Shown: positions 37,075 through 62,422 of the stretch, in pieces
Numbering within the stretch: position 1 is the first letter of the stretch
How the letters are laid out: every line of letters starts with the position of its first letter
Source of the DNA: Dehalococcoidia bacterium
Lineage (GTDB): Bacteria; Chloroflexota; Dehalococcoidia; Bin125
Assembly: GCA_963663235.2 (NCBI GenBank)
Contig: CAXXNO010000009.1
Coordinates: 84,580-148,579 of the forward strand
DNA: 64,000 bases
Direction of reading: 5' to 3'
Program-made: the position numbers and the translations under genes
The notes under the pieces: model-generated
What the model saw: the letters and a program-made list of their open reading frames with translations, nothing else
Told to the model about the DNA's origin: nothing
Databases searched by the model: none

Positions 37075-39690
37075 ATGATCTCATCATCCGAGTTAGCAGG
37101 CCTCTTCGGACAGAGCCTGGACATGTATCTAGATAGCTGCATTGTCGTAGGTGACGACGGTACGATCTTGCTGGCGAACCAACGGGTGCGGCGCGACTTC
37201 GGGTACAAGCCGCACGAGCTCGTGGGAAAATCGATCGAGACCTTGGTGCCCGAGCGCTTCCTCGAGGCCCACAGGCGAGGTTTCGCGGGCTTCTGGGAGG
37301 AGCCCACTGTACTCCACATGGATCTCAGCAGAAATCTCGTCGGACGGCGCAAAGACGGCTCCGAGCTTCCACTGACTATCGGCCTCAGCCCGGCGCAGAC
37401 CGACAGCGGCCTGGTGGTGCTCGCCGAATTGCGCGATATGAGCGAACAGCGCCGCGCTGAGCAAGCGCTGCAACCCAGCGAACAGCGGCATCGCGCCCTC
37501 ATCGAGAGTGCCGCCGTGGCCATCGTGCAGCTCGATCGAGATCTGATGGTCGAGTACGCCAACCCGGCCTTGTGCGAGCTGCTCGAAGTGCCCGACCCAG
37601 GGGACCTCATCGGGACATCCTATCGCCGGTTCTATAAAGGCAAGAATCGGGCGCTCCTTGAACAGGCGTTCGCGCGGCGCCTTCAAGGCGACACGGGAGC
37701 CAACGAATGAGAGCTCACGACGCAGAAGGGACGAACGCGGACCGTGATCGCTGGGGGTGGGGCGGTCACGGACGCCGCCGGCGAACTCGTGGGTACGATC
37801 GGCACCCTCGTTGACATCACGGAGCGGAAACGTCTGGAAAAGACCGTCGCGGCAAGTGCGGCGCTACTGGCGCGGGCCGAGGCGATGGTCCACGTCGGAA
37901 CCTGGTCCTTGAATCTCACGAGTAACAAAGTGACCGCGTCCGAGGAAGTCTACCGGATGCATGGCTTGGATCCGAAAGGCGCCAACGAGGTCACGGACCC
38001 GCAAACATTCCTTGCCCTCGTGCAGCCGGACGACCGAGCCGTGCTGCAACAAAGGCAGTTGTCCCACAGCGCAGGAGGCGTGCAGGACGAAGTCGACTTC
38101 CGCGTCGTGCGACCGGACGGAAGCGAACGGGTTCTCCGCGCACGGCATGACGTAGTGTTCGACGAGGCTGGGGCGCCAGTCACCCTCGTGGGCGTAACCT
38201 GGGACGTCACCGAGCGGAAGCGTCTGGAAACGGCCACCAAGGAAAGTGCTGCGCTCCTCGCGGAGGCCGCGGCGCTCGCCCACGTGGGGAGCTGGTCCCT
38301 CAATATCGCCGCGACCGAGCTGAGTGTATCCGAGGAGTACTGCCGGATACATGGCTTGGACTCGGAGGACGTCAAGGGCACCTTGGATCTGTTAGCGATC
38401 CGTGCCTTCGTGCACGTCGACGACCGGGCCATGGTGGAACGAGCGCTGGAGAAGAGCCTCGAGGAAGACGTGCATGACGAACTCGAGGTCCGTATTGTGC
38501 GACCGGACGGGAGCGAGCGGGTCATACGTTCGCGGCGTACAGTAACTCGCGACGAGGCCGGGGCGCCGGTCCGGATGGTCGGCGTAGGCCAGGACATCAC
38601 GGAGCAGAAGCGTCTGGAAACGGCCGCCGCGGAAAGTGCGGCGCTACTCCTGAGGGCCGAGGCGATGGCGCACACGGGGGCCTGGTCCTTGGATCTGGCG
38701 ACGAACAAGGTGACCGCGTCCCGCGAGCTCTACCTCATTCATGGCTTGGATCCGAAGGGCGCCAACGAACGCACGGATCCGCAAACATTCAGGGCCCTCG
38801 TGCACCCGGACGACCGCGCCTTAGTGGATCGCGTGCAGGCGCCCAGCAGTGAAAGAGGCGTACACGACGCCATCGAGTTCCGCATCGAGCGAGAGGGTGG
38901 AGGCGAGAGGGTTCTCCGCTCGCGCCATGAGGTACTTTTCGACGAGACGGGGGCAGCGGTGGAGATGGTGGGCACAGCCCAGGACATCACCGGGCGCGAG
39001 AAGGATGAGATGGCACTCAAGCGACTCTATGGAGAGCGCAGTCATTTAGTTCAGCGCTTAGTGGAGGCGCAAGAGGGGGAGCGCCAACAGATCGCCTATG
39101 ACCTCCATGATGGAGTGGCCCAACATCTGACGGCCGCGGCCATGTTCCTGGACGTCTATGCGTTGGAGCGGGAGGACCGGCAAGGGGAGGCCGAGGGGTA
39201 TCTCAGGCGGGCGAAGCAATCGCTGGACATCGTGCTCCGGGAGACGCAGCGGATCATGTCCGGGCTGCGGCCGCCGGCCCTGGATGACCTCGGCCTTGCG
39301 GGCGCTTTGCAAGGCGCGCTTGAGGACCTGCGGGCGGTCAGCGATGGCAAGCTGGAGATTGACTCCGATCTGAGTAACGTGCGCTTGTCCGGGGATGTGG
39401 AGATCTTGCTGTTCCGCATTGCGCAGGAAGCCCTCAACAACGCGCTGAAGCATGCGTCGGCGACACACATCCAGGTCAGTCTGCACATGGAGGGATCCCG
39501 GTTGACGCTGGCCGTGCGCGACAACGGCGAGGGATTCGATCGACGTGCGGAGGCAGGACCCGGCAATCGTCCGCACATGGGGCTTGAAAGCATGCAGGAG
39601 CGGGCAAAGCTAATCGGCGCCACCTGCGAGGTGATCTCCACGCCGGGGCAGGGCACTACGGTGCGCGTCATGATGCCGGTGCCGGAATAG
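37075..39690 (+). pseudogene. Multi-PAS sensor histidine kinase (HisKA_3) with an in-frame TGA at 37708-37710
   Basis: The two track ORFs share one frame; the stop falls inside a PAS domain; ERQQIAYDLHD, QEALNNALKH, DNGEGF. Confidence 0.8.
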
Positions 39691-39729
39691 ACGCGAGGGA
39701 CCCACAAGGAAACGGGACTGAGATGCCCA

Positions 39730-40422
39730 GTGGCTGAGGCACAGCGAGACGACGCAGATTCAGGCGGCGGCGGGATCCGGGTGCTGATTGTGGACGATCA
39801 TCGCGCCATGCGCGAGGGGCTGCGGGCGCTGCTCGACGTGCCGGAAATTCACGTGGTCGGCGAAGCCGCATCCGGCCGCGAAGCGGTCGCGTGCGTTCGC
39901 GAAGCGCAGCCCGACATCATTCTCCTCGACGTGCGCATGCCAGACATGGACGGGCTGACGGCGATCCCGCTGATCAAAGAGGAGTTGCCGTCCGTCGCGG
40001 TGATCATATTGACGAGCTTCGAGAGTTCCACATACGTGGCAGAGGCTCTTGCCGCCAGCGCCGCCGGGTATGTGCTGAAGGGTGTCGGGCGGGTCGCCCT
40101 GGTGAGGGCCGCCCAGACCGTGCACGAAGGCGGGGCCACTTTCGACCCGGTGGCTCTCGGGGGTTTAATTCGCAGCGTGAGATCTTCAGCAGGGCCTCTA
40201 CCCGACAGCGCGGGCCATGACTTGGTATCGCTGAGCGCAGGGGAGCAAGAAACGCTCAAGCTCGTGGCGAGCGGCCGGACCGACCAGCAGATCGCAGAGC
40301 AGATCCATTCCAGCGTCGCCACGGTCGAGAACACCGTGCAGAGCATCATCGAAAAGCTGGGCGCTCCAGACCGGATCTAGGCTGCCGTGCTCACCGGCTG
40401 CGCAGGATTCGCCATCGGTTAG
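39730..40422 (+). pseudogene. NarL family response regulator with a premature TAG at 40378-40380
   Basis: LIVDDH, LLDVRMPD; ends DRI*AAV where DRxQAAV is typical. Confidence 0.7.
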
Positions 40423-49392: not shown

Positions 49393-50247
49393 TCACTCGC
49401 CGTCGGCAGTCGCCGGTGCGGTCTGCTCGGCCTCTTCGATCTCCGGGGCCGAGGCGGGCTCTTCAGCAGCGGCCGCGCCATCCGGTTCCAGCACCTCGAT
49501 ACTGATCCGGCGGATGCGGCCGCCCGCCGCCGGCACCGGCACCAACTGGGGATTCCGCTCCGGGAGAGCCAAGACGAACTCCATCCCCTCGACCACACGG
49601 CCGAAGGCCGTGAACCCGCCACTGTCCAGTTGCGGCTGCGGCGTGAGCGTGATGAAGAACTGGGAGGAGAACGCCCCCTCCTGTGGCGAGCGCATCATGG
49701 CGAGGATGCCCACGCCATCCAGCGTGAGCGCCGCCGCGTTCTCACCCACGTCATCGTCCGGCAGGAAGTAGCCGGCGCTCCCCGTCAAGGTGGCGTCCGG
49801 AGCGCCGGTCTGCGCAACGAAATCCGCGACCACCCGGTGGAAGGTGAGGTTATCGTAGAAGCCCTGGTCCACCAGGAAGATAAAATTGTTGACGTGGATC
49901 GGCGCTTCGTCGTCGAACAGCTCGATCCGCACCACCCCGTTCTCCAACTCCACCACCGCGACGTACTCCTGACCGACGTCCAGCGTGAGGAGCGGTGGGG
50001 CGTCGAAGGTGGGCTTGCCTTCCACAGCGCCGGTCTCCCCGAGCACCTCGGACTCCAGCCGCCGCAGCGGCGCCTCGCCGTCCGGCGTGGTCGTGCTGCC
50101 CCCGCCCAGGAGGAAGACGGGCAGGAGGCCGCCCAAGAGCCCGACGACGCCGACGACGTAGAACATCTTGGCGTAGCGCGAGCGGAAGATGGAGCGCCGG
50201 CCGCCCCCGCGGTCGAAGCCGCGGCCGCCGCTGCGCCGCTGCGCCAA
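49393..50247 (-). CDS. Membrane-anchored cyclophilin-type peptidyl-prolyl isomerase
   Basis: APIHVNNF...GFYDNLTFHRVV, SQFFIT, TAFGRVVEG; N-terminal TM; true start may be about 45 nt upstream. Confidence 0.85.
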   Translation of the reverse strand: MAQRRSGGRGFDRGGGRRSIFRSRYAKMFYVVGVVGLLGGLLPVFLLGGGSTTTPDGEAPLRRLESEVLGETGAVEGKPTFDAPPLLTLDVGQEYVAVVELENGVVRIELFDDEAPIHVNNFIFLVDQGFYDNLTFHRVVADFVAQTGAPDATLTGSAGYFLPDDDVGENAAALTLDGVGILAMMRSPQEGAFSSQFFITLTPQPQLDSGGFTAFGRVVEGMEFVLALPERNPQLVPVPAAGGRIRRISIEVLEPDGAAAAEEPASAPEIEEAEQTAPATADGE

Positions 50248-50346
50248 GCGCTGCGCACGCTGCTGCCGAGTGAGTCGCTGTCGCGACGGCAGGGCAGTGC
50301 CTCCCTCGCCTTTACGCTCGGCCCCTGAGCGCGGATGTCCCGGCGC

Positions 50347-50422
50347 TGGTACCCCCGGCAGGACTCGAACCCGCGCTTCCGGCTCCGGAGGCCGGCGCTC
50401 TATCCAGCTGAGCTACGGGGGC
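50347..50422 (-). tRNA. tRNA-Arg(CCG)
   Basis: GCCCCCGTAGCTCAGCTGGATAGAGCGCCGGCCT-CCG-GAGCCGGAAGCGCGGGTTCGAGTCCTGCCGGGGGTACCA. Confidence 0.93.
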
Positions 50423-50501
50423 GTGCGCCAGATGGCGGGCGCGCCAATGTAGCCAAGGTGTAGCCACCGTACCGGTATCAGGCGTCGGACGGGAGGGTCC
50501 G

Positions 50502-50590
50502 ATGCGACGGCGAGGACACGGCGAAGGCAGTCTGTATCAGCGGGCGGACGGGCGCTGGTGCGCCAGCATGCGCCTCCCCGGCGGCAAGCG
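50502..50590 (+). pseudogene. N-terminal fragment of a tyrosine integrase, cut by the IS
   Basis: MRRRGHGEGSLYQRADGRWCASMRLPGGK resembles MSRRARGEGSVFKRSDGRW at 56139; GGAGG RBS. Confidence 0.75.
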
Positions 50591-51834
50591 TGACCTGCCC
50601 CCGATCGTTGTACCAGTCGTTAAGTGAGTCCGATCGCCGGGACGAGCGTCATGGGACGTTCCCGGGGTTGCTGCGTTTCCGGGGCGGGGGGGCGGTAGCC
50701 GAGGGCACGGTGGGGGCGGATCTGGTTGTCCTCCCGCCGCCAGCCCGCGATGAGGATCTGGGCTTCCAGCAGGGTGTCGAAGCGCTCGCGATTGAGGCAC
50801 GCGTCGCGCAGCTTGCCGTTGAACGATTCCCCAGAGCCGTTCGCCCAAGGCCTGCCCGGTTCGATGAAGCGGGTCGTGCCCCCGACCCGGTGCAGCCAGT
50901 CCCGCACCGCGGTGGCGGTGCACGCCGGGCCGTTGGCGGACCGCAGAAACGGCGGCGGCCCGCGCTCGACGAACAGCTGGGCCAACCGCGCCAGGCCGTC
51001 GTCGCTGCGCCGTCGGCGGGCGACGTCGAGACGCAGGCCCTCGCGGGTGGTCCTCATCCACGATGGCGAGGATCCGCACCGGGCGCCCCTCGGCGGTGCG
51101 GTCGAAGCCGAAGGCGTCGGACCAGCCGTGGGACGGCCGCTCGGCCCGCCGCCGCACCAGCGCGCCGGCCGCGAGCCAGAGGCGGCCCCGTTGGGGGTGC
51201 TTCCCGGGGACCCGCCAGCCTTCCTGACGCCAGAGCCGCTCGACCCGCTTGGGGTTCACCCGCCAGCCCGCCTGGCGCAGCCGGGCCGGGATGCGACGGG
51301 AGCCGTAGCGGCCGCAGCGGGTGGCCAGCGCGACGCTGCGCGCGATCAGCGCCGGCTCATCCGGGGACGGCCGGGGCACGTAGCGCGGTGTCGCCCGCGC
51401 CTGGCCGGTGACCTGGCAGGCCCGCCGCTCCGACACCGCGTACGGGTCCGTGCGGTAGGATGTCGCCCGGCGCCGCTGGGCCGGGCGCAGAAGTTTCCCG
51501 CTGCGACGTCCCCCAACATCGCGTTGGCCCGCGCCTGATCGGCCACCACCCGCTTCAGCCGACTGTTCTCGCGCTCCCGTTCTTTCAGCCGCTTGGCCCC
51601 TGGTCGACCCGCAGCCCCCCGTACTCCCGCCGCCAGCGGTAATACGTTGGCTCGGCCACGCCGAGGCGGCGCGCGACCGGCGCGACCGATTCCCCCTGCG
51701 CGAGCACCACCTCCGCCTCCCGCAGTTTGCCGATGATCTCCTCGGCCGCGTACCGCTTGCGTGCCATGCCGACTCCCTTCGCACCGGCCCGAATCCTCGC
51801 ACAGGATCTGGACCGGTTCTGGGGGGGCAGGTCA
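50591..51834 (-). mobile_element. IS3-family insertion sequence (IS407-like ends), 1244 bp, transposase inactivated
   Basis: Inverted ends TGACCTGCCCCC; orfA YYRWRREYGG; orfB VSERRAC, ESFNGKLRD, LGYRPPAP; no target-site duplication. Confidence 0.92.
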
Positions 51835-51909
51835 ATGCAAACGGTCGACATGAGCCTCGAACTGGACGCCTTGCCGCTGGAGCGCGCTGAGGAGGCCGAC
51901 GGCGGTCAT
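51835..51909 (-). pseudogene. 5' fragment of a small gene cut by the IS (TubC N-terminal-like)
   Basis: MTAVGLLSALQRQGVQFEAHVDRLH; ATGA-coupled to the primase stop. Confidence 0.5.
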
Positions 51910-54515
51910 AAGGGAAGATCAAACTCCTCACCTACCCCACCCTCCAGAAAAGGGCTGTGATCTTGCGACGCTTGCGATTCTTGCGACGCTCCATCTGGAG
52001 CGCTCACTTCACGTTGCGACGCTGTTGGCCCCTCTTGCGACGCTCCTAGAGTCGTTGCGACGCTGTCCTCCAGATGGGGGGCAGCCTCAGCGTCGCTAGC
52101 GACGCAAGATCCGCGCTCTTTTCTAATGGCGATGACCTTGCGGGAGCGAGAGTCAGGTTCTTGGTCGAAATTGATGGTGACCCCGGCTGCGCGTAAGGCG
52201 GGAGCGAAGCTCCGGAGCCGGCCTGACAGCACGCGAGCGTTTCCGGGCCACTCTTTGGCCTTGCGCTGTTCGTCGGTGATTTGGGCTTCCAGGAGATCCA
52301 GCAATTCAGTCGCTGTCCCCTGCAACTCGTCCCGCTCATCGAGTACTGCGATGACCGTTGCGGCCAGCAGCGATCCTTCCAGTACGGCCGTTTGCGCTTC
52401 TTGCTGGATGCCCGCATAGGCCGCTAGAAACGCCCCGTCCGGCCAGCCAGCCGCTTGCTCCACCGCGACGCCCCACGTTGCGAAATCAGCCATTCTTGGT
52501 ACTGCGGGGAGATGCACCGTTGGCAGGATCCGGTTTGCGGCGGCAACGAGATCGAGGAGAGCGCCGAGAAGGCGCGGTCGCGCTTCCTCATAGGCCGCCC
52601 AGAACGTCGCGTCCGGGATGCGTTGCTCATCCGTGAGTCGTGGGAGATCGAACGGGATCACCCGGCTTTGGAGATCGGGCCGGTTCACCAACTCCTCGAT
52701 GCCGCTCACAATCACTGGCCGGCGCTCATCGAAAATGACTTCTTCCTCGTCCGCGAAAAGTTGGCGAGTTCCAAACCCTCCGCCCGTCGCGATGCGGCAG
52801 AGCGCGTTGGAAAGCCACTCGGGCAGATTGGACAAATTGTCGAAAGCAAGAACCCAAGAGTTCCGCGCCGCGATCGCGAGATCGCGTTCACCGCGCGGCG
52901 CCGACCGGACCATCGACTCATGCGGATCAATGAGTCCCCGAAACACCTGCGTCGTAGTGGTTTTGGATGAGTCCTGCTCCCCACGGCAGTTCACGATCGG
53001 ATACTGGCGTGCGTCGCGAAGGGCCTGCGTTAGCCATACGGTGGCAACCAGACGGTCGCGCTCCTTCGTCACGTTCGCAAACCGCCAGAGTTCTTCGACG
53101 GTCCCGCCAGGAACCGGATACGGAAGCGGGAGCATCCCTCGCGCGCGCCGAAACTTCACAGGCGGATCGGTGATCACGCGCCAGCCATCCGGGCTGATCT
53201 CGATCACCTCCCAACGGTCATTTACGAGGTCCAGATACATGCAATCGCCATGACTGGCGACGCGGAAGTGAACCCGATGAACCTCGCCCTCGAAGCGGGC
53301 ACGGCCACTCAGGATCGCCTTGGCATCCGCGACAGCCTGTGCGCTTGGGGCACGCTGCTGATCTTCCCAAAACCGGAGCGCGAGATAATCATGGAATGGC
53401 TCGGACCGAAGCGGCCACGTCTGACGCATCCCTTTGATCTTCGCGGTGACAAAGGGAAGCCCAGCGGAACTCAAGAAGTATTCTTCCCCACCGGCGAGAT
53501 CCGCAAGGATGGTCGCTTGTGAAGGGTTCCCGCCCTTCTTGTCTGTGTCGTCGCTGGGCTGCGCGGGTACGTGGTCGAGCGTCGCGATCGCTTGCCGGAT
53601 CGCCTGTGCGCCATCGCGGACCAACACATCGTTGAAATCATCCCCGCTGCGCTCGGGCACGAGGAGCGCAGATCGGCGACTTCCAGTTCGCAGCCGCTCG
53701 ACCGCTTTGGTAGCGGACTCCAGGCCATCTTGATCGTTGTCGGCGACGATGATGACTTCTTTGACACTGGAAGGCACATCCGCCGTCCCAAAACCAGAGG
53801 CTGAGCCCACGACCCACACGGGAACGCCGGCCGCTTGTCGCAGCGCCAGTCCTGTTTCGATGCCTTCACAGAGGAAGAGGCGTTCCCCAGGATCACTCAG
53901 ATGGATCGCGGAGCCCGCGACGGGTCCCAGCATCGCTTTCGCTGGTTGGATGTCTGCCTTGCCTGGTCCGTCGACGCTCAGATATGTGCGGTGGATGCCG
54001 GTGATCTCCCCAGCACACGTCTCGAACGGCGCGACGATGCCAGGGAAGGTGTCGCCGTCTGGATGTTTGAGATGCGGGGAGAAGCGGAAGGACTGCGGGA
54101 TCACGCTTGCGTCGATACCGCGAGAAGCGAAGTATCTTCGGCCGCGTTCGCCGATCGGCTCTGCATCCTCGTACAACTCCCGCGCGCGTTTCTTGTTCGC
54201 GGGGATCAGAGTGGGCGCGTGTTGCCCATCACCAAGTCCACTACGTTGCCCGTTACCGGATCGTGATGGGACAGCCAATCCGTCGCGATGATCTGTGCCG
54301 CATCGACAGGGACCACCCAGCCAATGGGCGAAGGTGTGCGCATCATCTTGTTCAATCGGGCCGGCGAGTTCTGTTCGGGTGCAGTGTTCATAGTCCCCAT
54401 CGTCGCTCACCAAGCCATAGCATCGCTCGCCTTTGCCGTGCGGTAGAGCGTCGTGTCCACCGCAGATCTGACACGGGCTAATAGGGCGATGCCGTTGTTG
54501 CGCGTTCACAGTCAT
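51906..54515 (-). CDS. Primase-helicase/replication protein (Zn-binding, Toprim, ATPase-like)
   Basis: CQICGG, GIHRTYL, LCEGIETGL, ADND, DFND, GEQDSSKTT, FDNLS, RQLFAD. Confidence 0.82.
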   Translation of the reverse strand: MTVNAQQRHRPISPCQICGGHDALPHGKGERCYGLVSDDGDYEHCTRTELAGPIEQDDAHTFAHWLGGPCRCGTDHRDGLAVPSRSGNGQRSGLGDGQHAPTLIPANKKRARELYEDAEPIGERGRRYFASRGIDASVIPQSFRFSPHLKHPDGDTFPGIVAPFETCAGEITGIHRTYLSVDGPGKADIQPAKAMLGPVAGSAIHLSDPGERLFLCEGIETGLALRQAAGVPVWVVGSASGFGTADVPSSVKEVIIVADNDQDGLESATKAVERLRTGSRRSALLVPERSGDDFNDVLVRDGAQAIRQAIATLDHVPAQPSDDTDKKGGNPSQATILADLAGGEEYFLSSAGLPFVTAKIKGMRQTWPLRSEPFHDYLALRFWEDQQRAPSAQAVADAKAILSGRARFEGEVHRVHFRVASHGDCMYLDLVNDRWEVIEISPDGWRVITDPPVKFRRARGMLPLPYPVPGGTVEELWRFANVTKERDRLVATVWLTQALRDARQYPIVNCRGEQDSSKTTTTQVFRGLIDPHESMVRSAPRGERDLAIAARNSWVLAFDNLSNLPEWLSNALCRIATGGGFGTRQLFADEEEVIFDERRPVIVSGIEELVNRPDLQSRVIPFDLPRLTDEQRIPDATFWAAYEEARPRLLGALLDLVAAANRILPTVHLPAVPRMADFATWGVAVEQAAGWPDGAFLAAYAGIQQEAQTAVLEGSLLAATVIAVLDERDELQGTATELLDLLEAQITDEQRKAKEWPGNARVLSGRLRSFAPALRAAGVTINFDQEPDSRSRKVIAIRKERGSCVASDAEAAPHLEDSVATTLGASQEGPTASQREVSAPDGASQESQASQDHSPFLEGGVGEEFDLPL
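51963..52106. repeat. Iteron-like TTGCGACGCT repeats (5 direct) plus an inverted pair; putative origin
   Basis: Copies at 51963, 51981, 52014, 52035, 52055; AGCGTCGCTAGCGACGC near 52089. Confidence 0.7.
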
Positions 54516-54799
54516 GGCGTCGGCTGCGCGTAGAGGATGGCGACGCGCTCCCCGCCGTCATTACGAAGGCAGCGGATGGTGAAGTGCAGTCCTACAAGGC
54601 GGAGACGGTCCTGAGGATCATCCAGGAGCGATAGCGTGCGCACGAATTGCTGGTATCGAGGATCGAGTGTGGCATCCAAAGGGAAATCCAAAGGGAACCC
54701 GAGAGTTACCTGACAGATCGCGGTGGCCGTCACTGGTGGGACAACTCGCTCAACGTCTATGAGGTCGGTGTTACAATTTTCGTGTTCGAGCACGATCAT
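54512..54799 (-). CDS. Hypothetical protein
   Basis: GGGAG RBS; stop overlaps the primase start. Confidence 0.5.
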   Translation of the reverse strand: MIVLEHENCNTDLIDVERVVPPVTATAICQVTLGFPLDFPLDATLDPRYQQFVRTLSLLDDPQDRLRLVGLHFTIRCLRNDGGERVAILYAQPTP

Positions 54800-54855
54800 C
54801 GCGTGCTCCCTTCGCCGAGGCGCCGCCCAACACCGGGCGGCGCTCTCATATCCGA

Positions 54856-55062
54856 CTACCGTCCGGCGGCAGTAGCCAACTCGGTTTTCTCCGCGATCCA
54901 CTTCTCAAGTGCCACGCGGGACACGCGCCGCTGCCCGCCAACTTTCATGCTGGGCAACGTCCCATCCATGATCAGTGGCCACGTCGCGGACTCGCTCCGA
55001 TTGATCAACTTGGCAACGTCGGAGACTCGGAGCAGGAGTGGTTCCACAACTTTTCCCTTCAT
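54856..55062 (-). CDS. Excisionase-like HTH DNA-binding protein
   Basis: LLRVSDVAKLI...GTLPSMKVGGQRRVSRVALEKWI. Confidence 0.8.
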   Translation of the reverse strand: MKGKVVEPLLLRVSDVAKLINRSESATWPLIMDGTLPSMKVGGQRRVSRVALEKWIAEKTELATAAGR

Positions 55063-55149
55063 CGAAACCTATCCGCCTCTCGATCAGTCTTGTATGCTTC
55101 GCCTGGGCCGTCCAACGCTCTTGTGACGTATCAGCGTTACGGAGGGGAC

Positions 55150-56142
55150 ATGGCAGTAGTATCCGACACCATCGAGGTGATCGAAACCGTCGTCCCCTCG
55201 CGACTTGTCGAGGTGCGGGATGGATACGTCTATGTGCAAGACCCAAAGATGATTCTCACGAAGGACGAACTGAAGAAGATTGAGGACGCGTCCGACCATG
55301 TCTTCCAATTTCGACGCAGCCCCGAGAACGTCATCATCGAGTTCGTCGATCTCGAAGAAGGTGACGACGATCGGCTGGCCCAATTCGTCCGCCGATTCGG
55401 CCTTCTCGGCTTGTGCCAACACGGGAAGCGCCACAATCACCTCCCAGGTTGTGGGGCAGAGCGGGTGTCCTGGATCGAAGGCGAGGAAGACACGCCATCG
55501 CTCTGGAAGGCTCCACGGAGCCGTACAGAAGTTGGTATTCGCGAGCGTGTTGAAGCGTGGTACCGCTATCGCGACCGGGCTGAAGCGCTCCTCACGATTG
55601 CGGTGTTTCTCAGAGGCAAGGTAGATGCGCGTCGAGGGAGAGTTCGGGGGGCATGGCGCACATTGATCGACGATGGGGGTGCCGACCAGTACCCCACGAT
55701 CCCGACGCTGATGAGAAACCGCGTCGCAGCCATCACAATGCACTCAGAGAACCTGAACGACTGGCTTCAAACCGCGGCACTGGCACTCTCGCAGGCTTGG
55801 GATCCGAATGAGGAACGCGGAAGAACGGAGTTGACCGGAACGCTGTTGGGCAATCTGGGGTATCAAATTCTGGCCGCGACGAACGGGTCAACGCTCCTGG
55901 CGTATTGTGACAACTGCGCTCGGCTCTTCGAACCGAACCCGCGTGTCCCCGAAGATCGCGGTAAGTACTGCAAGCTATGTCGCTCGAAGAACGTGAGCGG
56001 TCGAGTCCGCCAGCAGCGATTCCGTGAGCGGCAGCAGGAGATCCGCCGGTTAAACGCGGACGGTGTACCCATCCGCGAAATCGCGACGCGCATGGACGCC
56101 AAGCCAGAGAAGATTCGTAAGTGGTTAGGAGTCAAAAGATGA
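55150..56142 (+). CDS. Putative regulator with C-terminal Cys cluster and HTH
   Basis: CDNC...YCKLC..RQQRFR, then GVPIREIATRMD..KIRKWL; divergent from xis, coupled to the integrase. Confidence 0.6.
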   Translation: MAVVSDTIEVIETVVPSRLVEVRDGYVYVQDPKMILTKDELKKIEDASDHVFQFRRSPENVIIEFVDLEEGDDDRLAQFVRRFGLLGLCQHGKRHNHLPGCGAERVSWIEGEEDTPSLWKAPRSRTEVGIRERVEAWYRYRDRAEALLTIAVFLRGKVDARRGRVRGAWRTLIDDGGADQYPTIPTLMRNRVAAITMHSENLNDWLQTAALALSQAWDPNEERGRTELTGTLLGNLGYQILAATNGSTLLAYCDNCARLFEPNPRVPEDRGKYCKLCRSKNVSGRVRQQRFRERQQEIRRLNADGVPIREIATRMDAKPEKIRKWLGVKR

Positions 56143-57274
56143 GCCGACGTGCCCGCGGTGAGGGCTCCGTTTTCAAGAGGTCCGACGGGAGATGGGCCGG
56201 CGAGTTGGTGTTGGGCTGGAAGGATGGGAGACGCGTTCGTAAGTCATTTACGGACGCTCCCAGGCTGAGGCTCTGCGGAAGCTCAGGGCCGCACAGAGAG
56301 CACAGGACGACGGACTGCCTCAGCCGTCCGAGCGAGAGACGGTCGGGGGTTTCCTGCGCGTCTGGATCGAGGAATCGGCACAGGTCCGCCTCCGCCCTTC
56401 CACGCTTCAGTCGTACACATCTATCGCCTACGGGAATTTAATTCCGGCCTTTGAAAAGACGCGGCTCGCGAAACTCAGCCCCACAGACGTCGAGGCCTAC
56501 GTCGCCGAGAAGTCGCGAGTGGGGCTATCGGGGTACTCCGTCCGTAATCACGTCGCCCTCCTCCGCAGAGCCTTGAACGACGCAGTCCGCTGGGGCCTCG
56601 TGCCCCGCAATGTCGCCGCCGGCGTGAGGCCACCCCGGCTGCGCGACGCGAGCAGCCGCCCCTTCGACGAGGCGGAAGCCCAGCAGTTCCTTGCCCATGT
56701 ACAAGGCGACCGCCTTGAGGCTCTCTTCGCTCTCGCGCTCGGCTTGGGCCTGAGACAGTCGGAATTATTGGGGCTCACGCATGATGCCGTCGATCTGAAT
56801 CGCAGGCGTCTGCAAGTTCAGGCTCAGCTCCGGCGTCATCACGGTCGCTTCTGGCTGGAGGAACCGAAGACGGCGCGCAGCCGCCGCACCATGTCGCTTG
56901 AACTCCCGCTCGTCGAAGTCGTTCGGCGCCGTCGTGTCCTTCAGAAGGAAGAACAACTCGCTGCCGGCCCAGCGTGGCAGGGGAATGAGCTTGGCCTGCT
57001 GTTCAACACGGAGCTGGGAGGTCCCATCTCAGCCGCCACACTGAGCCGGCGCTTCCACGCCCTCTGTGAGGGAGCCGGTCTTCGCCGCGTGCGGTTCCAC
57101 GACCTTCGCCACACATACGGGAGCCTCTTGGCGGAGAAAGGTGTCCCGATGCGGACGGCGATGGATCTCATGGGCCACACGCAGATCTCGACCACCGCCC
57201 AGGTCTACCAACACGTCTCCGAGGAGTCGATGCAGGACGCTGCCGCGCGGGTGGCAAGGGCTCTTTGGCGCTGA
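56139..57274 (+). CDS. Tyrosine integrase (1-nt deletion in a T-run near 56248)
   Basis: GLRQSELLGL, KT, RFHDLRHT, MGHTQ, VYQH catalytic set. Confidence 0.88.
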
Positions 57275-57564: not shown

Positions 57565-57594
57565 TTGACAGATAAGAACATGTGTTCGTATCTT
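57565..57594 (+). promoter_or_regulatory. sigma70 promoter with a LexA box
   Basis: TTGACA (57565-57570), GAAC-ATGT-GTTC (57576-57587), TATCTT (57589-57594). Confidence 0.85.
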
Positions 57595-57649
57595 GCTGAT
57601 CCTGCCGGGGTATCTAGGGCCGCTCTTGGGCTGCCGGTGGGGACCGGGG

Positions 57650-58915
57650 GTGAACGCCATCGCTCCGAGCGTCGCAGCTTCCAGGTGGACCGCCGCTGTA
57701 CGCATCCCGCACTTCGCCTTGGCATTGGCGCAAGCCGCCAGAGGGTGTCTCCTGCGCCACCGCGGTCCGCCGCTGGTGCTCTGCGACGCCCATAGCGCCC
57801 CGGCGCGTGTGCTCGACGCCTGCGACCAAGCAACACGGTTCGGCGTTCGCGCCGGGATGCCCGTGCGGGACGCCCTCGCCTGCTGCCCCACGGCCGAATT
57901 CCTCTCGGCCGATCCCCTCCAGGCGCCGCGGGAGCGGGAGCGCTGGCTCGACGCGCTGGAGGCTGTCAGCCCGACCGTCGAGCCCGACACGCAGGATATC
58001 GGCACCGTGCTCGTGGATCTGGAAGGGCTCGATCAGCTGCACGGCGGAGACCTCGGCGTGGTCAAGGCCCTCGCGGCCACGACGAAACAGGCACTCGGGC
58101 TGGAGCCGTGCATCGGCGTGGCGGACGGGCCATTCGCCGCCCGCGCGGCGGCCGTCAGCGCGATTCCTTCAGCGCCGGCGATCGTGCCGCGGGGTCAAGC
58201 GCCCCGCTATCTCACCGCGCTGGGAGTGGAGCAGTTGCCGCTCGGCAGGGATGTCACCCACCGGCTGCGCACACGGTTCGGCATCCGCACGATCGGGGAG
58301 TTCGCGGCGCTCCCGCTGGGGGCGGTGCAAGCACAGTTCGGACTAGCGGGCCGCGAGGCGTGGCACCTGGCACACGGCCGCGACCGGCGACGGCTGCGGC
58401 CGCGGGTCCACGCCGCGCACCTAGGCGAACGACTGCAGTTCCCCTCGCCCACCGCCAGCGGCGAAGCGCTCCTGACCGCCGCACGCCATCTGGTGACGCG
58501 GCTCTTGCAACGGCCCGAGCTGGAGCAGCGCGCCGTGCGGCGGGTGACTGTCTGGATCCAGGTCGCCGACGGTCCCAACTGGGAGCGGAGCGTGACGTTG
58601 CAGGAGGCGTCGCGCGACGCGCAGCGGCTGCGGATCGTGATTCGGCGCGAGTTGGAGCGGTTGTGGGCGGCCGGGCAGACAACGCTCCCCGGTCCCGTGG
58701 CCGAGATCGGGCTGGAGTTCGCCGACCTCTGCACGGAAAGCGGCAAGCAGGCCGCGCTGTGGACCGGGAACGGCCGGCGCACCAAGCAGTTGGACGACGC
58801 GGTGCGCCAGCTCCGGGCGCGCTATAGCGAGCCCACGCTTTTCCGCGTCGTGGAGGTGGAGCCGTGGTCGCGCTTTCCCGAGCGGCAGGCGGCGCTGATC
58901 GCCTACGACCCCTGA
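57650..58915 (+). CDS. imuB: ImuB-like inactive Y-family polymerase
   Basis: GVRAGMP..DAL..CP, SPTVE, IGVADGPFAA, GIRTIGEFAAL; upstream of dnaE2. Confidence 0.8.
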   Translation: MNAIAPSVAASRWTAAVRIPHFALALAQAARGCLLRHRGPPLVLCDAHSAPARVLDACDQATRFGVRAGMPVRDALACCPTAEFLSADPLQAPRERERWLDALEAVSPTVEPDTQDIGTVLVDLEGLDQLHGGDLGVVKALAATTKQALGLEPCIGVADGPFAARAAAVSAIPSAPAIVPRGQAPRYLTALGVEQLPLGRDVTHRLRTRFGIRTIGEFAALPLGAVQAQFGLAGREAWHLAHGRDRRRLRPRVHAAHLGERLQFPSPTASGEALLTAARHLVTRLLQRPELEQRAVRRVTVWIQVADGPNWERSVTLQEASRDAQRLRIVIRRELERLWAAGQTTLPGPVAEIGLEFADLCTESGKQAALWTGNGRRTKQLDDAVRQLRARYSEPTLFRVVEVEPWSRFPERQAALIAYDP

Positions 58916-59164: not shown

Positions 59165-62100
59165 ATGGCCTACGTCGAGCTGCACTGCCACAGCGGCTAC
59201 TCGTTCCTAGACGGCGCTTCCACGCCGAACGAGCTGGCGCACTACGCCCACGCCCTCGGCCATTCGGCGCTCGCGCTCACGGACACCGACGGGCTCTACG
59301 GCGCGATGGAGTTCGCGAAGGCGGCGAGCGCCTGGGGGGTCCGGCCGATTATTGGCGCGGAGGTCACGCTGGCAGGGCCCGACGGGTCGCGGCCACGCAT
59401 GGATCGCCCGGCCGAAGGCTATCAGCTGCTTTTGCTCGTCGAGAACGCCCACGGCTACGCCAACCTCTGCCGCCTGATCACGGCCGCGCACCTCGCCCAC
59501 GAGAAGGGCGAACCGGCGCTCGACCCGGCGCTGCTGGCGACACATGCGAACGGCCTGATCTGCCTGACCGGCTCGCCAGATCACGGCGAGGTGGCGCGCC
59601 TCGCGTCGGCCGGCGACCTCGACGGTGCACGCGCCGCCCTCGCGCGACTCGTCGAGTGGTTCGGGCATTCCCGGATCTACGTCGAACTCCAGCACCACTA
59701 CGCCCCCGGCGACCGCAACAGGAACGAGCGGTTGGTGGCGCTGGCCCGCGACTGCGGCCTGGCAGTGGTGGCGACGAACGACGTGCACTACCACGCGCCG
59801 GACCGGCGTCGTCTGCAGGATGTGTTGGTCGCGATCCGCACGCACCAACCGCTCGACGCCTGCCACCGCGAGCGCTTCCCCAACGGCGAGTATTACCTGA
59901 AGTCCGAGGCGGAGATACGGGCCGCCTTCGCCGACTGGCCCGAGGCGATCGAGCACACGGGCGAGGTAGCGGAGCGCTGCCGCTTCGACATCGAGTCCCA
60001 GCTCACCTACCGCTTCCCCGATTACCCCACGCCCCAGGGCGAGCCGCCCGACGCCTATCTCCGCGCCGTCTGCGAGGCCACGATACGCGACCGCTACAGC
60101 ACCGTCACCGGCGCGGTCCCTCCGAACGTGCAAGCGCGGCTTGAGGAGGAGCTGCGACTGATCGCCCGGCATAGACTCGCGGGTTTCTTTCTCATCTACC
60201 GCGACCTGATCGAGGAGGGGAAACAAGTGCTGGCGGAGCTGCGGGCCGAGCGCGGCGACCCCACGCCCGTGACCCACCCGCCGGGACGGGGGCGCGGCTC
60301 CTCGGTCGGATCGCTGGTCTGCTACCTGATCGGGCTCTCCCACATCGACCCGATCGCCAACGACCTCTTCCTGGGACGCTTCCTCAACGAGGAGATGGCA
60401 GCCGTTCCCGACATCGATCTGGACTTCTCACGGGAGGTGCGGGAGCGGATGATCGCGCGCGTCTACGAGCGCTGGGGGCGGGATCATGTCGCGCTGACCT
60501 GCACGTTCCCGACCTACCGCACGCGCGGGGCGATCCGGGAAGTGGGGAAGGCGCTCGGGCTTCCCGCACCGGCCCTGGACAAGCTCGCCAAGCTCGCCGC
60601 CCGGACCGGCGTGGAGGACCTGCCGCAGGAGATGGCGCGGCTGCCCGAGTTCCGCGACCAGACCCGCACCCCGATGTGGCGGCACTTCTTCCGCCTCGTG
60701 CAGGAGATCCACGGGCTGCCGCGGCACGTCAGCCAGCACGTGGGCGGCATGATCATCTCCTCCACTCCCCTCGTGAAGTGCGTGCCGCTGGAGAACAGCC
60801 GGATGCCGGGGCGAGTGGTCTGCCAGTGGGACAAGGACAGCATCGACGACGCCCGCTTCATCAAGATCGACTTCCTGGCCCTGGGGATGCTCTCAGCGGT
60901 GGACGAGTGCCTAGACCGGATCCGCGCGCGCACGGGCAAGAGCGTGGATTTGTCGCGCATCGACTTCGCCGACCCGCGCGTCTACGCGGCGATCCAGGCC
61001 GGCGACACGGTGGGCACGTTCCAGGTCGAGAGCCGCGCACAGATCCAGAGCATCATCCGCACGCGGCCCGAGAACCTGGAAGACCTGACGGTCCAGGTGG
61101 CGATCATCCGGCCGGGCCCCATCGTCGGCGGCGCGGTGAACCCGTACATCAATCGGCGGATGGGGCGGGAGCTCGTGACCTACGACCACCCGCTCTTGGA
61201 GCCCGCCCTGAAAGAGACGCTGGGGGTGGTGCTCTATCAGGAGCAGGTGATCGAGGTCGTGATGGCGATCGGCGGGTTCTCGCCCGGACAGGCGGACCAG
61301 ATGCGCCGGGCGATGCGCCGCAAGCGGTCGTTCGAGGCGATGGCGGAGTTCTGGGAGGCCTTTCGGGCCGGCGCAGCCGAGCGAGGCATTGCCCGTGATT
61401 TGGCGGAGACGATCTTTCGCAAGCTGCTGGGGTTCGCCGAGTTCGGCTTCCCCAAGAGCCACGCCGCCGCCTTCGGGCTACTGGCCTATCAGTCGAACTG
61501 GCTGCGGGTCCATTACCCGGCGGAGTACCTGGCGGCGTTGCTCAATGCGCAGCCAATGGGCTTCTATTCGCCCGAAGTCCTGGTCGGCGACGCGAAACGC
61601 CACGAGGTGCCCCTCCTCGCGCCCGATATCAACCGCAGCACGGACCTCTGCGCGCCGGAAGGCGAGGGCGTACGTCTGGGTCTCGCGATGGTCCGGTCGA
61701 TCGGTGAGACGCCGGCGAAAACGATCGTCCAGGAACGGGATCGCTACGGCGCCTACGGCTCGCTGTTCGATCTCTACCGGCGCGTGCCGTTGCGGCGGGA
61801 GGGGATCGAGGCGCTGATCGAAGCGTGCGCCTTCGACTGGACGGGGCTGGAACGGCGGGAACTCCTCTGGCAGGTGGGATTGTTCTACCAGCCTGTCGCG
61901 CAGCCGGCCGGTGAGGCGGCCCGAACGGCGCCGCGTCCCCGGCAGTTACCGTTGGCGCTCCCGACGGTGCAGGACCAGCCGCCGCTGCGGCCGATGAGCC
62001 GCTGGAAACGGCTGGTGGCCGACTACCGGGCCCTCGGCCTTTCCACCGTCGATCACCCGATGGCGGCGCTGCGAAACTGGCTGGATCAATTGCACGAAGG

Positions 62101-62422
62101 CGTAGTGCGGGTGGCCGGGCTGGAGGAGATGGCCGCGGATGGCCCGGTGACCATCGCGGGCCTCGTGGTCTGCCGCCAACAACCGGAAACGGCCAAAGGG
62201 TTCATCTTCCTGCTACTGGAGGACGAGACGGGGCTGGCCAACATCGTCGTCAGTCCACAGGTGCACAAGCAGTTCCAGGAGCTGGTGCGGCTAGAGCCGT
62301 TCGTCGTGGTGCACGGCGACTTGGAGCGCAAAGACGGCGTGACCAATGTGATAGGCCGGTCGCTGGAGCGGCTCGAGGTGCCGCCGGAGATGGTCGCGCC
62401 GGAGGCGCACAGCTTTCACTAG
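59165..62422 (+). CDS. dnaE2: Error-prone DNA polymerase DnaE2
   Basis: YVELHCHSGYSFLDGAS, GRGSS, PDIDLDF, PRHVSQHVGG, GFPKSHA, C-terminal AHSFH. Confidence 0.93.
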   Translation: MAYVELHCHSGYSFLDGASTPNELAHYAHALGHSALALTDTDGLYGAMEFAKAASAWGVRPIIGAEVTLAGPDGSRPRMDRPAEGYQLLLLVENAHGYANLCRLITAAHLAHEKGEPALDPALLATHANGLICLTGSPDHGEVARLASAGDLDGARAALARLVEWFGHSRIYVELQHHYAPGDRNRNERLVALARDCGLAVVATNDVHYHAPDRRRLQDVLVAIRTHQPLDACHRERFPNGEYYLKSEAEIRAAFADWPEAIEHTGEVAERCRFDIESQLTYRFPDYPTPQGEPPDAYLRAVCEATIRDRYSTVTGAVPPNVQARLEEELRLIARHRLAGFFLIYRDLIEEGKQVLAELRAERGDPTPVTHPPGRGRGSSVGSLVCYLIGLSHIDPIANDLFLGRFLNEEMAAVPDIDLDFSREVRERMIARVYERWGRDHVALTCTFPTYRTRGAIREVGKALGLPAPALDKLAKLAARTGVEDLPQEMARLPEFRDQTRTPMWRHFFRLVQEIHGLPRHVSQHVGGMIISSTPLVKCVPLENSRMPGRVVCQWDKDSIDDARFIKIDFLALGMLSAVDECLDRIRARTGKSVDLSRIDFADPRVYAAIQAGDTVGTFQVESRAQIQSIIRTRPENLEDLTVQVAIIRPGPIVGGAVNPYINRRMGRELVTYDHPLLEPALKETLGVVLYQEQVIEVVMAIGGFSPGQADQMRRAMRRKRSFEAMAEFWEAFRAGAAERGIARDLAETIFRKLLGFAEFGFPKSHAAAFGLLAYQSNWLRVHYPAEYLAALLNAQPMGFYSPEVLVGDAKRHEVPLLAPDINRSTDLCAPEGEGVRLGLAMVRSIGETPAKTIVQERDRYGAYGSLFDLYRRVPLRREGIEALIEACAFDWTGLERRELLWQVGLFYQPVAQPAGEAARTAPRPRQLPLALPTVQDQPPLRPMSRWKRLVADYRALGLSTVDHPMAALRNWLDQLHEGVVRVAGLEEMAADGPVTIAGLVVCRQQPETAKGFIFLLLEDETGLANIVVSPQVHKQFQELVRLEPFVVVHGDLERKDGVTNVIGRSLERLEVPPEMVAPEAHSFH

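Follow-up and report, generated by a model that had tools for sequence, protein, structure and literature searches.

What kind of process could load a bacterial insertion sequence (IS) with a single class of point mutation? The question is raised by a 1.24-kb element of the IS3 family in a 64,000-nucleotide stretch of the genome of a Dehalococcoidia bacterium (hereafter the window; positions refer to it unless a contig is given). The genome, G000, is that of a sponge-associated bacterium and was recovered as a long-read metagenome bin (2.75 Mb, 14 contigs, 92% complete). A preliminary description of the locus had claimed that the element is saturated with A:T>C:G transversions, and that a process confined to IS DNA had rewritten this copy. 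We confirm the observation: A:T>C:G changes dominate the spectrum almost to the exclusion of others, on both strands. The interpretation is partly supported, as the load is indeed confined to the element, but most changes are common to its copies rather than peculiar to this one; the element is also found in another genus in a less changed state, and the changes are mostly inherited in common. Such a load suggests that mutation is either directed at the mobile element or kept within it, and we tentatively favour, with somewhat less than even confidence, error-prone synthesis with oxidised deoxyguanosine triphosphate (dGTP) that would be confined to the element during gene conversion between its copies.

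A nearly pure A:T>C:G spectrum

The genome contains 12 full-length copies of the family, the one in the window included, which are mutually 97.3-99.5% alike and have a G+C content of 73.7-74.9%; five further pieces lie at contig ends. In addition there are two relatives that are 85-86% alike (69% G+C; hereafter the 85% relatives) and retain the motifs HVWSYDFV, RSDNGPEF and PWENGYVESF, and one intact-looking relative that is 75% alike. A search of 41 related genomes revealed copies 95-96% alike (71% G+C) in G003, a genome from a different genus of the same bacterial family. The nearest motif-keeping relative among these, G003:C1:930202-931443 (G003_930k), was used as comparator. The window copy differs from it by 51 substitutions, namely 19 A>C, 23 T>G, six C>A, two G>T, one C>G and no transition, which amounts to 42 A:T>C:G changes and eight in the reverse direction. 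The 35-40 changes estimated by eye in the preliminary description, their presence on both strands and the near absence of transitions therefore agree well with the aligned count.

The individual motif changes, proposed against general IS3 family motifs, were recovered in alignment to the same comparator. HVWSYDFV has turned into HGWSDAFG through V125G (GTC>GGC), Y128D (TAC>GAC), D129A (GAC>GCC) and V131G (GTC>GGC), RSDNGPEF into RSANGPAC (D39A, E43A, F44C), and GSPWENGYVESF into GRPWANGSGESF (S67R, E70A, Y73S, V74G), while RDECLN reads RDACLN (E84A), REYN..RPHS reads REDN..RPHR (Y108D, S115R), VNHKR reads VNPKR (H83P) and KELER reads KERER (L63R). Only the proposed change of YGYRRITALL to YGSRRIPARL had to be split: ITALL has become IPARL (T71P, L73R), but the step from YGY to YGS is older, being present in the G003 copies, which keep every other motif named. 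The expected orfA stop codon TGA reads TGC, owing to an A>C change at 51487, and both aspartates of the DDE triad are lost, as they are in all 12 family copies.

The bias is even stronger in what the copies have in common. Between the family consensus and G003_930k there are 56 differing sites, every one of them an exchange of A with C or of G with T (hereafter the AC/GT class), with neither transitions nor G<>C differences; 49 of these sites are A/T in G003 and C/G in the family, and seven are the reverse. Polarisation with three outgroups places 42 changes on the family side and five on that of G003. Among the 12 copies in G000, 44 of the 58 polarised polymorphisms are A:T>C:G, and even the closest pairs of copies differ mainly by this type of change (e.g., four of five and nine of 12 substitutions), while between the two G003 copies there are 13 differences, 12 of which belong to the AC/GT class. 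Sites that are A/T in the 85% relatives carry the transversion in all 12 copies in 35 cases and in some copies in 44 more. Judging from these copies, the A:T>C:G process is ongoing and recurrent. The 85% relatives were rejected as parents: they belong to a sister lineage, and the mixed spectrum that they yield (177 differences, with 32 A>C, 26 T>G, 53 G<>C, 59 transitions and seven others, thus 58 of 177 in the class of interest) is misleading, so that the G003 copies are the proper comparator. Yet the asymmetry is recovered here too when the 75% relative is used for polarisation, with A:T>C:G making up 40 of 93 changes on the family branch and one of 62 on the other.

A third genome, G005, carries a separate lineage of the element (copy G005_b, 80% alike, 74% G+C). 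At 284 conserved ancestral A/T sites this copy shows 52 A:T>C:G changes, three transitions and one T>A, and it has 21 hit sites in common with the G000 family where 10.3 are expected (p=1.5e-4).

Among 65 genomes of the bacterial family, full-length copies occur only in G000, G003 (two full and three partial copies) and G005 (two full copies). Two exact-pattern scans of metagenome_contigs gave no further copies, and a scan of genome_contigs gave only protein relatives at 64-73% in many phyla and none of the near relatives. Since the element is 95-96% alike between G000 and G003 while other shared genes are 68-72% alike, the dead element must have crossed between genera in the recent past and moves horizontally. 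Non-IS DNA common to both genomes that could serve as a control of the same age was not found, the best matches being 68-72% identical. With their catalytic aspartates lost and their frames shifted, the family copies are non-autonomous; mobilisation in trans is nevertheless plausible, because the terminal 12 bases are retained and the same ends are found in relatives. In G005, two copies lie head to tail at G005:C1:578532-581016, 4 bp apart with abutting terminal repeats, the second of the pair being the heavily changed one.

Confinement of the load to the element

Three duplicated stretches of G000 directly adjoin family copies (Table 1) and offer a control. Over a total of 15.9 kb they differ by 53 substitutions, with 35 transitions, 11 changes in the AC/GT class, four A<>T and three C<>G; the AC/GT class thus accounts for 11 of 53 differences in these flanks versus 56 of 56 in the consensus (Fisher p=2.7e-20). 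Expressed as mean pairwise divergence, the copies differ by 1.286% in AC/GT changes and 0.149% in transitions, the flanks by 0.069% and 0.220%, respectively. AC/GT change is therefore about 19-fold higher in the element than in its flanks at a similar transition clock (Fisher p=1.2e-10). Differences in such duplicates are spread evenly across the three codon phases, and selection is therefore unlikely to mask a 27-fold shift in ratio.

Other sequences of the genome are likewise without the load. Across 174 other repeat pairs in G000 the AC/GT class makes up 3198 of 17623 differences (18%), and the two 85% relatives differ mutually at 17 sites with a mixed spectrum. In 1180 long open reading frames (ORFs), fourfold sites are still 17% A/T, and G/C reaches 76% at two-fold versus 83% at fourfold sites, whereas the element's own rates would push neutral sites above 93% G+C. 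As the flanks, the other repeats, the 85% relatives and the fourfold sites all lack the load, a steady genome-wide mutator is unlikely; these controls speak for the period of copy divergence. Neither a mixed spectrum against the parent nor the same load elsewhere, the two outcomes that would have spoken against the preliminary description, was found in the G003 comparison and the repeat controls. Its own control, a set of "decaying genes at 37-41 kb", does not hold up: positions 37075-40380 contain long open frames (211, 648 and 216 aa) with internal repeats.

G003 provides a further, smaller comparison. At G003:C1:1649500-1652200 and 1191100-1193800 an intact sister IS lies inside a family copy, near position 420, and this composite is present twice. 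Its two versions show three differences, all T<>G or C<>A; small as the numbers are, all three lie in the 827 bp of the family part, and the 1241 bp of sister IS next to it have none. Five G003 copies of the intact sister IS show no substitution among them.

Anatomy of the changes

In the window copy, codon position 2 carries 31 changes, position 1 carries 15 and position 3 four, in keeping with the positions at which a G+C-rich gene retains A/T. Only one of 49 changed codons is synonymous, which argues that there was no selection for protein function during the process; the 48 replacements include nine to Ala, seven to Gly, nine to Arg and six to Pro. Measured against the 85% relatives, changes affect A and T of one strand at equal rates (44 of 209 A sites, 35 of 164 T sites), a strand symmetry that speaks against a process based on transcription or reverse transcription. 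Local context matters: A following A is spared (three of 60 changed, versus 76 of 310), and the highest rate is seen for A between two G or C bases (53 of 183). Two further patterns were rejected. T>G after runs of G shows no dependence on run length (43 of 228, 22 of 83, three of 36 and four of 13), and dislocation-type errors, in which the neighbouring base is copied, are not indicated since an adjacent C is no commoner at changed than at unchanged sites.

The changes are also unevenly distributed along the element, whose ends are less changed than its centre (21 of 157 versus 54 of 189 A/T sites, p=6e-4). The four-gamete test is failed by 243 of 595 pairs of informative sites and, at distances under 50 bp, by 13 of 47. 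Pairs of sites outside the AC/GT class fail at a rate (two of 6) like that of AC/GT pairs (191 of 465). From this we infer that the copies exchange sequence and are mosaics, and that recurrent mutation is not the sole cause.

The changes in independent sequence data

The possibility that the letters themselves are wrong deserves attention, as the genome is a bin of 14 contigs from a long-read metagenome, some contigs end inside copies, and one such end copy has nine gap positions. Yet the changed letters are common to 12 copies, and the 85% relatives retain the original letters in the same local context, which argues against a context-specific base-calling error. The signature is moreover carried by G003 and G005. 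Runs holding this sequence include sponge metagenomes and runs labelled with two organisms. In Logan contigs aligned to positions 50200-52300, variant places are A<>C or G<>T in 10 of 10, 18 of 18, 19 of 20 and 25 of 27 cases in four runs from three studies, the same variants thus recurring at depth. Both junctions are covered by contigs of three runs with no differences, reaching 25 and 30 letters into the element where 31 was set as the criterion for bridging. A sequencing or assembly artefact is therefore extremely improbable.

Candidate mechanisms

A nearly exclusive A:T>C:G spectrum is the mark of 8-oxo-dGTP, the oxidised nucleotide, inserted opposite A. According to the reading that we tentatively favour, a low-fidelity polymerase would repeatedly re-synthesise element DNA during gene conversion between copies and insert oxidised dGTP opposite A. 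Synthesis would stop where the shared homology ends, so that the changes stop at the element's ends, and the copies being already dead, nothing would purge them. The outcome would be similar in effect to the repeat-induced point mutation (RIP) of fungi, but would probably be a by-product of repair and not a defence. Synthesis confined by homology would explain why the borders are sharp, why the ends are less changed, why the copies are mosaics and why both strands are affected alike. The genome encodes two sets of candidate polymerases, a Pol IV of the DinB type and the pair ImuB/DnaE2. The DinB-type gene (G000:C6:243629-244066) matches PF00817 at 171.2 bits and is a candidate for a role in the changes. 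The window itself carries an ImuB-like gene of the Y family (57593-58915), with IMS and IMS_C domains and scores below the Pol IV cut-offs, and a DnaE2 gene (59165-62422; NF004225, 1025.6 bits, cut-off 939). The 9.3-kb block with the ImuB-like and DnaE2 genes is duplicated at G000:C12:54203-63477, where it directly adjoins another family copy. A precedent comes from Pseudomonas aeruginosa, where Pol IV is reported to insert oxidised guanine nucleotides, with A>C changes concentrated in certain regions, to spare A/T-flanked sites and to lead to replacements by Ala and Gly, Glu>Ala foremost; the reported changes affect the rRNA operons and parts of the chromosome close to the terminus, with a preference for 5'G and/or 3'C (PMC12318082).

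Several observations weigh against this proposal. The 8-oxo-dGTP chemistry is deduced from the spectrum alone. The 5'G/3'C preference of Pol IV is not reproduced, as a 5'G and/or 3'C accompanies 51 of 79 changed and 178 of 294 unchanged sites, and the ImuB-like gene does not track the signature, being found in G000 and G003 and not seen in G005. The two-copy duplicates of 3-9 kb can recombine as well and yet are without the load; homology alone is therefore insufficient, and copy number or the action of the transposase must matter. G003 and G005, on the other hand, show the signature despite their low present copy number. The private (singleton) changes among 14 family members (six A>C, six C>T, five C>A, three A>G and two C>G) are less biased than the shared ones, although some of the private C>A are probably unchanged ancestral A. 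Concerning the controls, part of the flanking duplicated DNA is located at contig ends and may represent variation between strains instead of true duplication; even so, it would still control for the spectrum of the host. Finally, given its movement between hosts, the element may have acquired some of the load during a past mutator episode in an unsampled host.

One alternative is that a MutT-type mutator acted on the whole genome, steadily or in episodes, in the present or an earlier host, and that the dead element merely retained the hits. The spectrum matches what is known of mutT loss, three genomes from the same bacterial family carry the signature, and the mutT equivalog remains below its cut-off in all five family genomes; the best TIGR00586 match in G000 scores 34.6 bits (cut-off 97.9), but this is a weak test, as only three of 14 control genomes pass it. 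Hosts as yet unsampled could moreover have housed the element. We nevertheless regard such a mutator as unlikely, given that the flanking duplicates have equal or greater transition divergence with 19 times less AC/GT change per site, that the 85% relatives and the other repeats of the same genome have mixed spectra, and that the A/T left at fourfold sites, like the G/C content at two-fold sites, is far from the equilibrium of the element's rates. Another possibility is a dedicated mutator directed against transposons or repeats, a bacterial counterpart of RIP that would sense the element's ends, its transcripts or its copy number. The confinement of the load, its recurrence in independent lineages in three genomes, the sites hit in common beyond chance and the loss of both catalytic aspartates would all fit. 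However, no candidate gene was identified, we know of no enzyme chemistry that converts A to C directly, and the shared hot sites may follow from sequence context alone. Repetition as such does not seem to be the trigger, as the 3-9 kb duplicates are spared, and the five identical sister IS copies in G003, though maybe young, are untouched. A directed mutator is thus quite doubtful in our view, and there is only a small chance that an element-directed A:T>C:G process, RIP-like with a different chemistry, disables insertion sequences in several genera of this sponge-associated family.

Two further explanations involve the act of transposition and the exchange between copies. IS3 copy-out replication might be error-prone and alter both the new copy and the re-synthesised donor: synthesis limited to the element fits the confinement, the element retains the ends that mobilisation in trans would require, these ends are less changed, and the genome has an intact relative whose 12-bp ends are the same. 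Yet at least four transpositions added no substitution to the five sister IS copies in G003, whose identity indicates that transposition as such is not mutagenic; only six private A>C changes are found among 14 members, and the mosaic would in any case require exchange between copies. Mutagenic transposition is for these reasons distinctly improbable. Biased mismatch repair alone, in which a MutY-type glycosylase turns A·G mispairs in heteroduplexes into C·G and so spreads rare A:T>C:G changes, would agree with the exchange between copies and with shared polymorphisms being far more biased than private ones, and a MutY-like gene is present (205.7 bits, below the cut-off of 286.5 bits). But 12-17 copies would raise fixation at most about copy-number-fold, to be compared with an observed excess over transitions of 56 to 0, and the two G003 copies, where raw mutations should dominate, still show 12 of 13 differences in the AC/GT class; we therefore consider this explanation highly unlikely. 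As to the MutY-like genes themselves, the best match in G000 is a 256-aa frame below the family cut-off, and the match to that of G003 (G003:C1:1561626-1562239) is split into two adjoining pieces, perhaps by a frameshift.

Should the process be a by-product of repair, as we tentatively favour, ectopic gene conversion would be strongly and specifically mutagenic in nature, and dead insertion sequences would record the polymerase and the damaged nucleotide, and thereby the repair history of uncultured bacteria. Should it instead be directed, bacteria would have a genome defence of a new type. In either case a simple scan statistic follows: A<>C/G<>T differences between paralogous copies, with transitions lacking, can be sought in long-read metagenome bins.

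The element and its surroundings

The assignment to the IS3 family is based on the overlapping frames with a -1 heptamer and on the TG…CA terminal repeats, which are both present (Table 1), and on DNA identities of 75-96% to IS3 relatives. The window copy is not among 11 matches to Pfam rve (E<=1e-5), of which the sole family member is the copy at G000:C10:3697-4937. The intact relative on contig C14 (OrfB, L019:1437-2318:-) matches the IS3 transposase model NF033516 at 257.5 bits (cut-off 160) and rve at 82.2 bits. In the window copy the orfA frame starts with MARKRYAAEEIIG…, resembles a helix-turn-helix in this first part and was typed as IS3-family orfA; it is disrupted by a 2-nt GG insertion at 51599-51600. 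OrfA ends in …AAGNF, and a -1 shift at the heptamer yields GKLL…, the start of the orfB frame. The G GGA AAC heptamer is therefore a putative functional frameshift site, with frameshifting predicted from the sequence. The extra C that splits orfB is found in 11 of 12 family copies, in both 85% relatives and in the G003 copies, but not in the C10 copy, G005_a or the C14 copy. The C10 copy, lacking this base, has a single open frame of 402 aa and matches rve at 42.9 bits.

Table 1. Coordinates of the element, its parts and neighbours in the window, and of the duplicated stretches that adjoin family copies
Feature	Position	Strand	Details
IS3-family insertion sequence copy, transposase-dead	50591..51834	-	1244 bp, 73.8% G+C
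Left terminal inverted repeat TGACCTGCCCCC, 5'-TG end	51823..51834	-	12 bp
Right terminal inverted repeat, …GGGGGCAGGTCA as read on the minus strand	50591..50602	-	12 bp
orfA remnant, MARKRY…	51487..51767	-	8 residue changes vs G003
G GGA AAC heptamer, orfA/orfB overlap	51493..51499	-	matches X XXY YYZ pattern for -1 frameshift
orfB, first part	51047..51499	-	contains HGWSDAFG, YGSRRIPARL, VNPKR
HGWSDAFG	51107-51130	-	first catalytic Asp lost, D>A at 51114
YGSRRIPARL	51278-51307	-	orfB first part
VNPKR	51245-51259	-	orfB first part
Extra C splitting orfB at IVDE/YTRE	51050	-	
orfB, second part	50620..51051	-	contains RSANGPAC, GRPWANGSGESF, RDACLN, REDNQIRPHR
RSANGPAC	50920-50943	-	second catalytic Asp lost, D>A at 50936
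GRPWANGSGESF	50821-50856	-	Glu of ESF retained
RDACLN	50791-50808	-	orfB second part
REDNQIRPHR	50707-50736	-	orfB second part
ORF start, 30 codons, MRRRGHGEGSLYQRADGRW…	50502..50590	+	runs straight into element; no continuation beyond
tRNA-Arg (CCG)	50347..50422	-	
Duplicate	C10:2-3540 vs C12:467335-470873		3.5 kb; transitions 9, AC/GT 0, A<>T 0, C<>G 2
Duplicate	C12:49801-52926 vs C6:1-3125		3.1 kb; transitions 11, AC/GT 6, A<>T 0, C<>G 0
Duplicate	C12:54203-63477 vs C9:139299-148579		9.3 kb; transitions 15, AC/GT 5, A<>T 4, C<>G 1

The terminal 12 bases are identical in the 14 G000 copies displayed, and the same 12 bases occur at 10 of 11 other loci, with ends located by a fixed 10-base motif. 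Target-site duplications, which in the IS3 family are short (3-5 bp), were found at none of the 12 family copies; GAGTC flanks both 85% relatives, which have a common insertion site and flanks and thus represent a segmental duplication. None was found at the five identical sister IS copies in G003 either, and the idea that absent target-site duplications are a sign of recombination was dropped, since these young identical copies lack them as well.

On one side of the element, the interrupted ORF start in Table 1 may represent the N-terminus of a tyrosine integrase, which it resembles. Beyond the element lies an island of lower G+C content (58-64%, positions 51906-57274), for which the nearby tRNA-Arg (CCG) probably served as attachment site. 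This island comprises an 869-aa primase-like gene with DUF7146 and Toprim domains (51906-54515, minus strand) and a gene of the phage-integrase family (56519-57274). A separate IS of about 955 bp with a 278-aa frame lies at G000:C4:38855-39813 and in six other places; six of its copies are 99.7-100% alike (0-3 mismatches), and the seventh is 97% alike, with seven gap positions and mostly transitions.

Comparison with known systems

IS3-family elements encode orfA and orfB, joined by a -1 frameshift into a DDE transposase, and move by a copy-out-paste-in mechanism. The element resembles them in its length of 1.24 kb, its 5'-TG…CA-3' repeats, the overlap of orfA and orfB at G GGA AAC and the relative that passes the IS3 model; it differs in that the window copy and its 11 siblings are frameshifted and without catalytic aspartates, and that the window copy has no target-site duplication. 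A search of main texts in a literature collection brought up no account of bacterial insertion sequences that alone carry a load of point mutations. On the reading favoured here, the process would be a local mutagenesis by oxidised nucleotides whose novelty lies in its link to a mobile element. With mutT loss the element shares the nearly exclusive A:T>C:G change on both strands, but known cases are genome-wide, whereas the signature is absent here from flanking duplicates, other repeats and fourfold sites. The Pol IV mutagenesis reported for P. aeruginosa is similar in several respects: regional A>C change, the sparing of A/T-flanked sites and replacements to Ala and Gly, with Glu>Ala frequent in both, are found here alongside a DinB-type gene, yet the target is a mobile element wherever it is located, and the 5'G/3'C preference is not seen (PMC12318082).

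Diversity-generating retroelements likewise concentrate their changes at A, but they act on one strand, turning A into any base via reverse transcriptase, while A and T are both hit here and only to C or G. Fungal RIP, lastly, leaves a similar picture of repeated mobile DNA riddled with one class of mutation, its coding capacity lost and unique DNA spared. RIP, however, is C>T change at CpA on any duplicate longer than a few hundred bp, whereas the element shows A:T>C:G with no transition among 56 differences, and the duplicates of 3.1, 3.5 and 9.3 kb in the same genome are spared, with transitions dominant.

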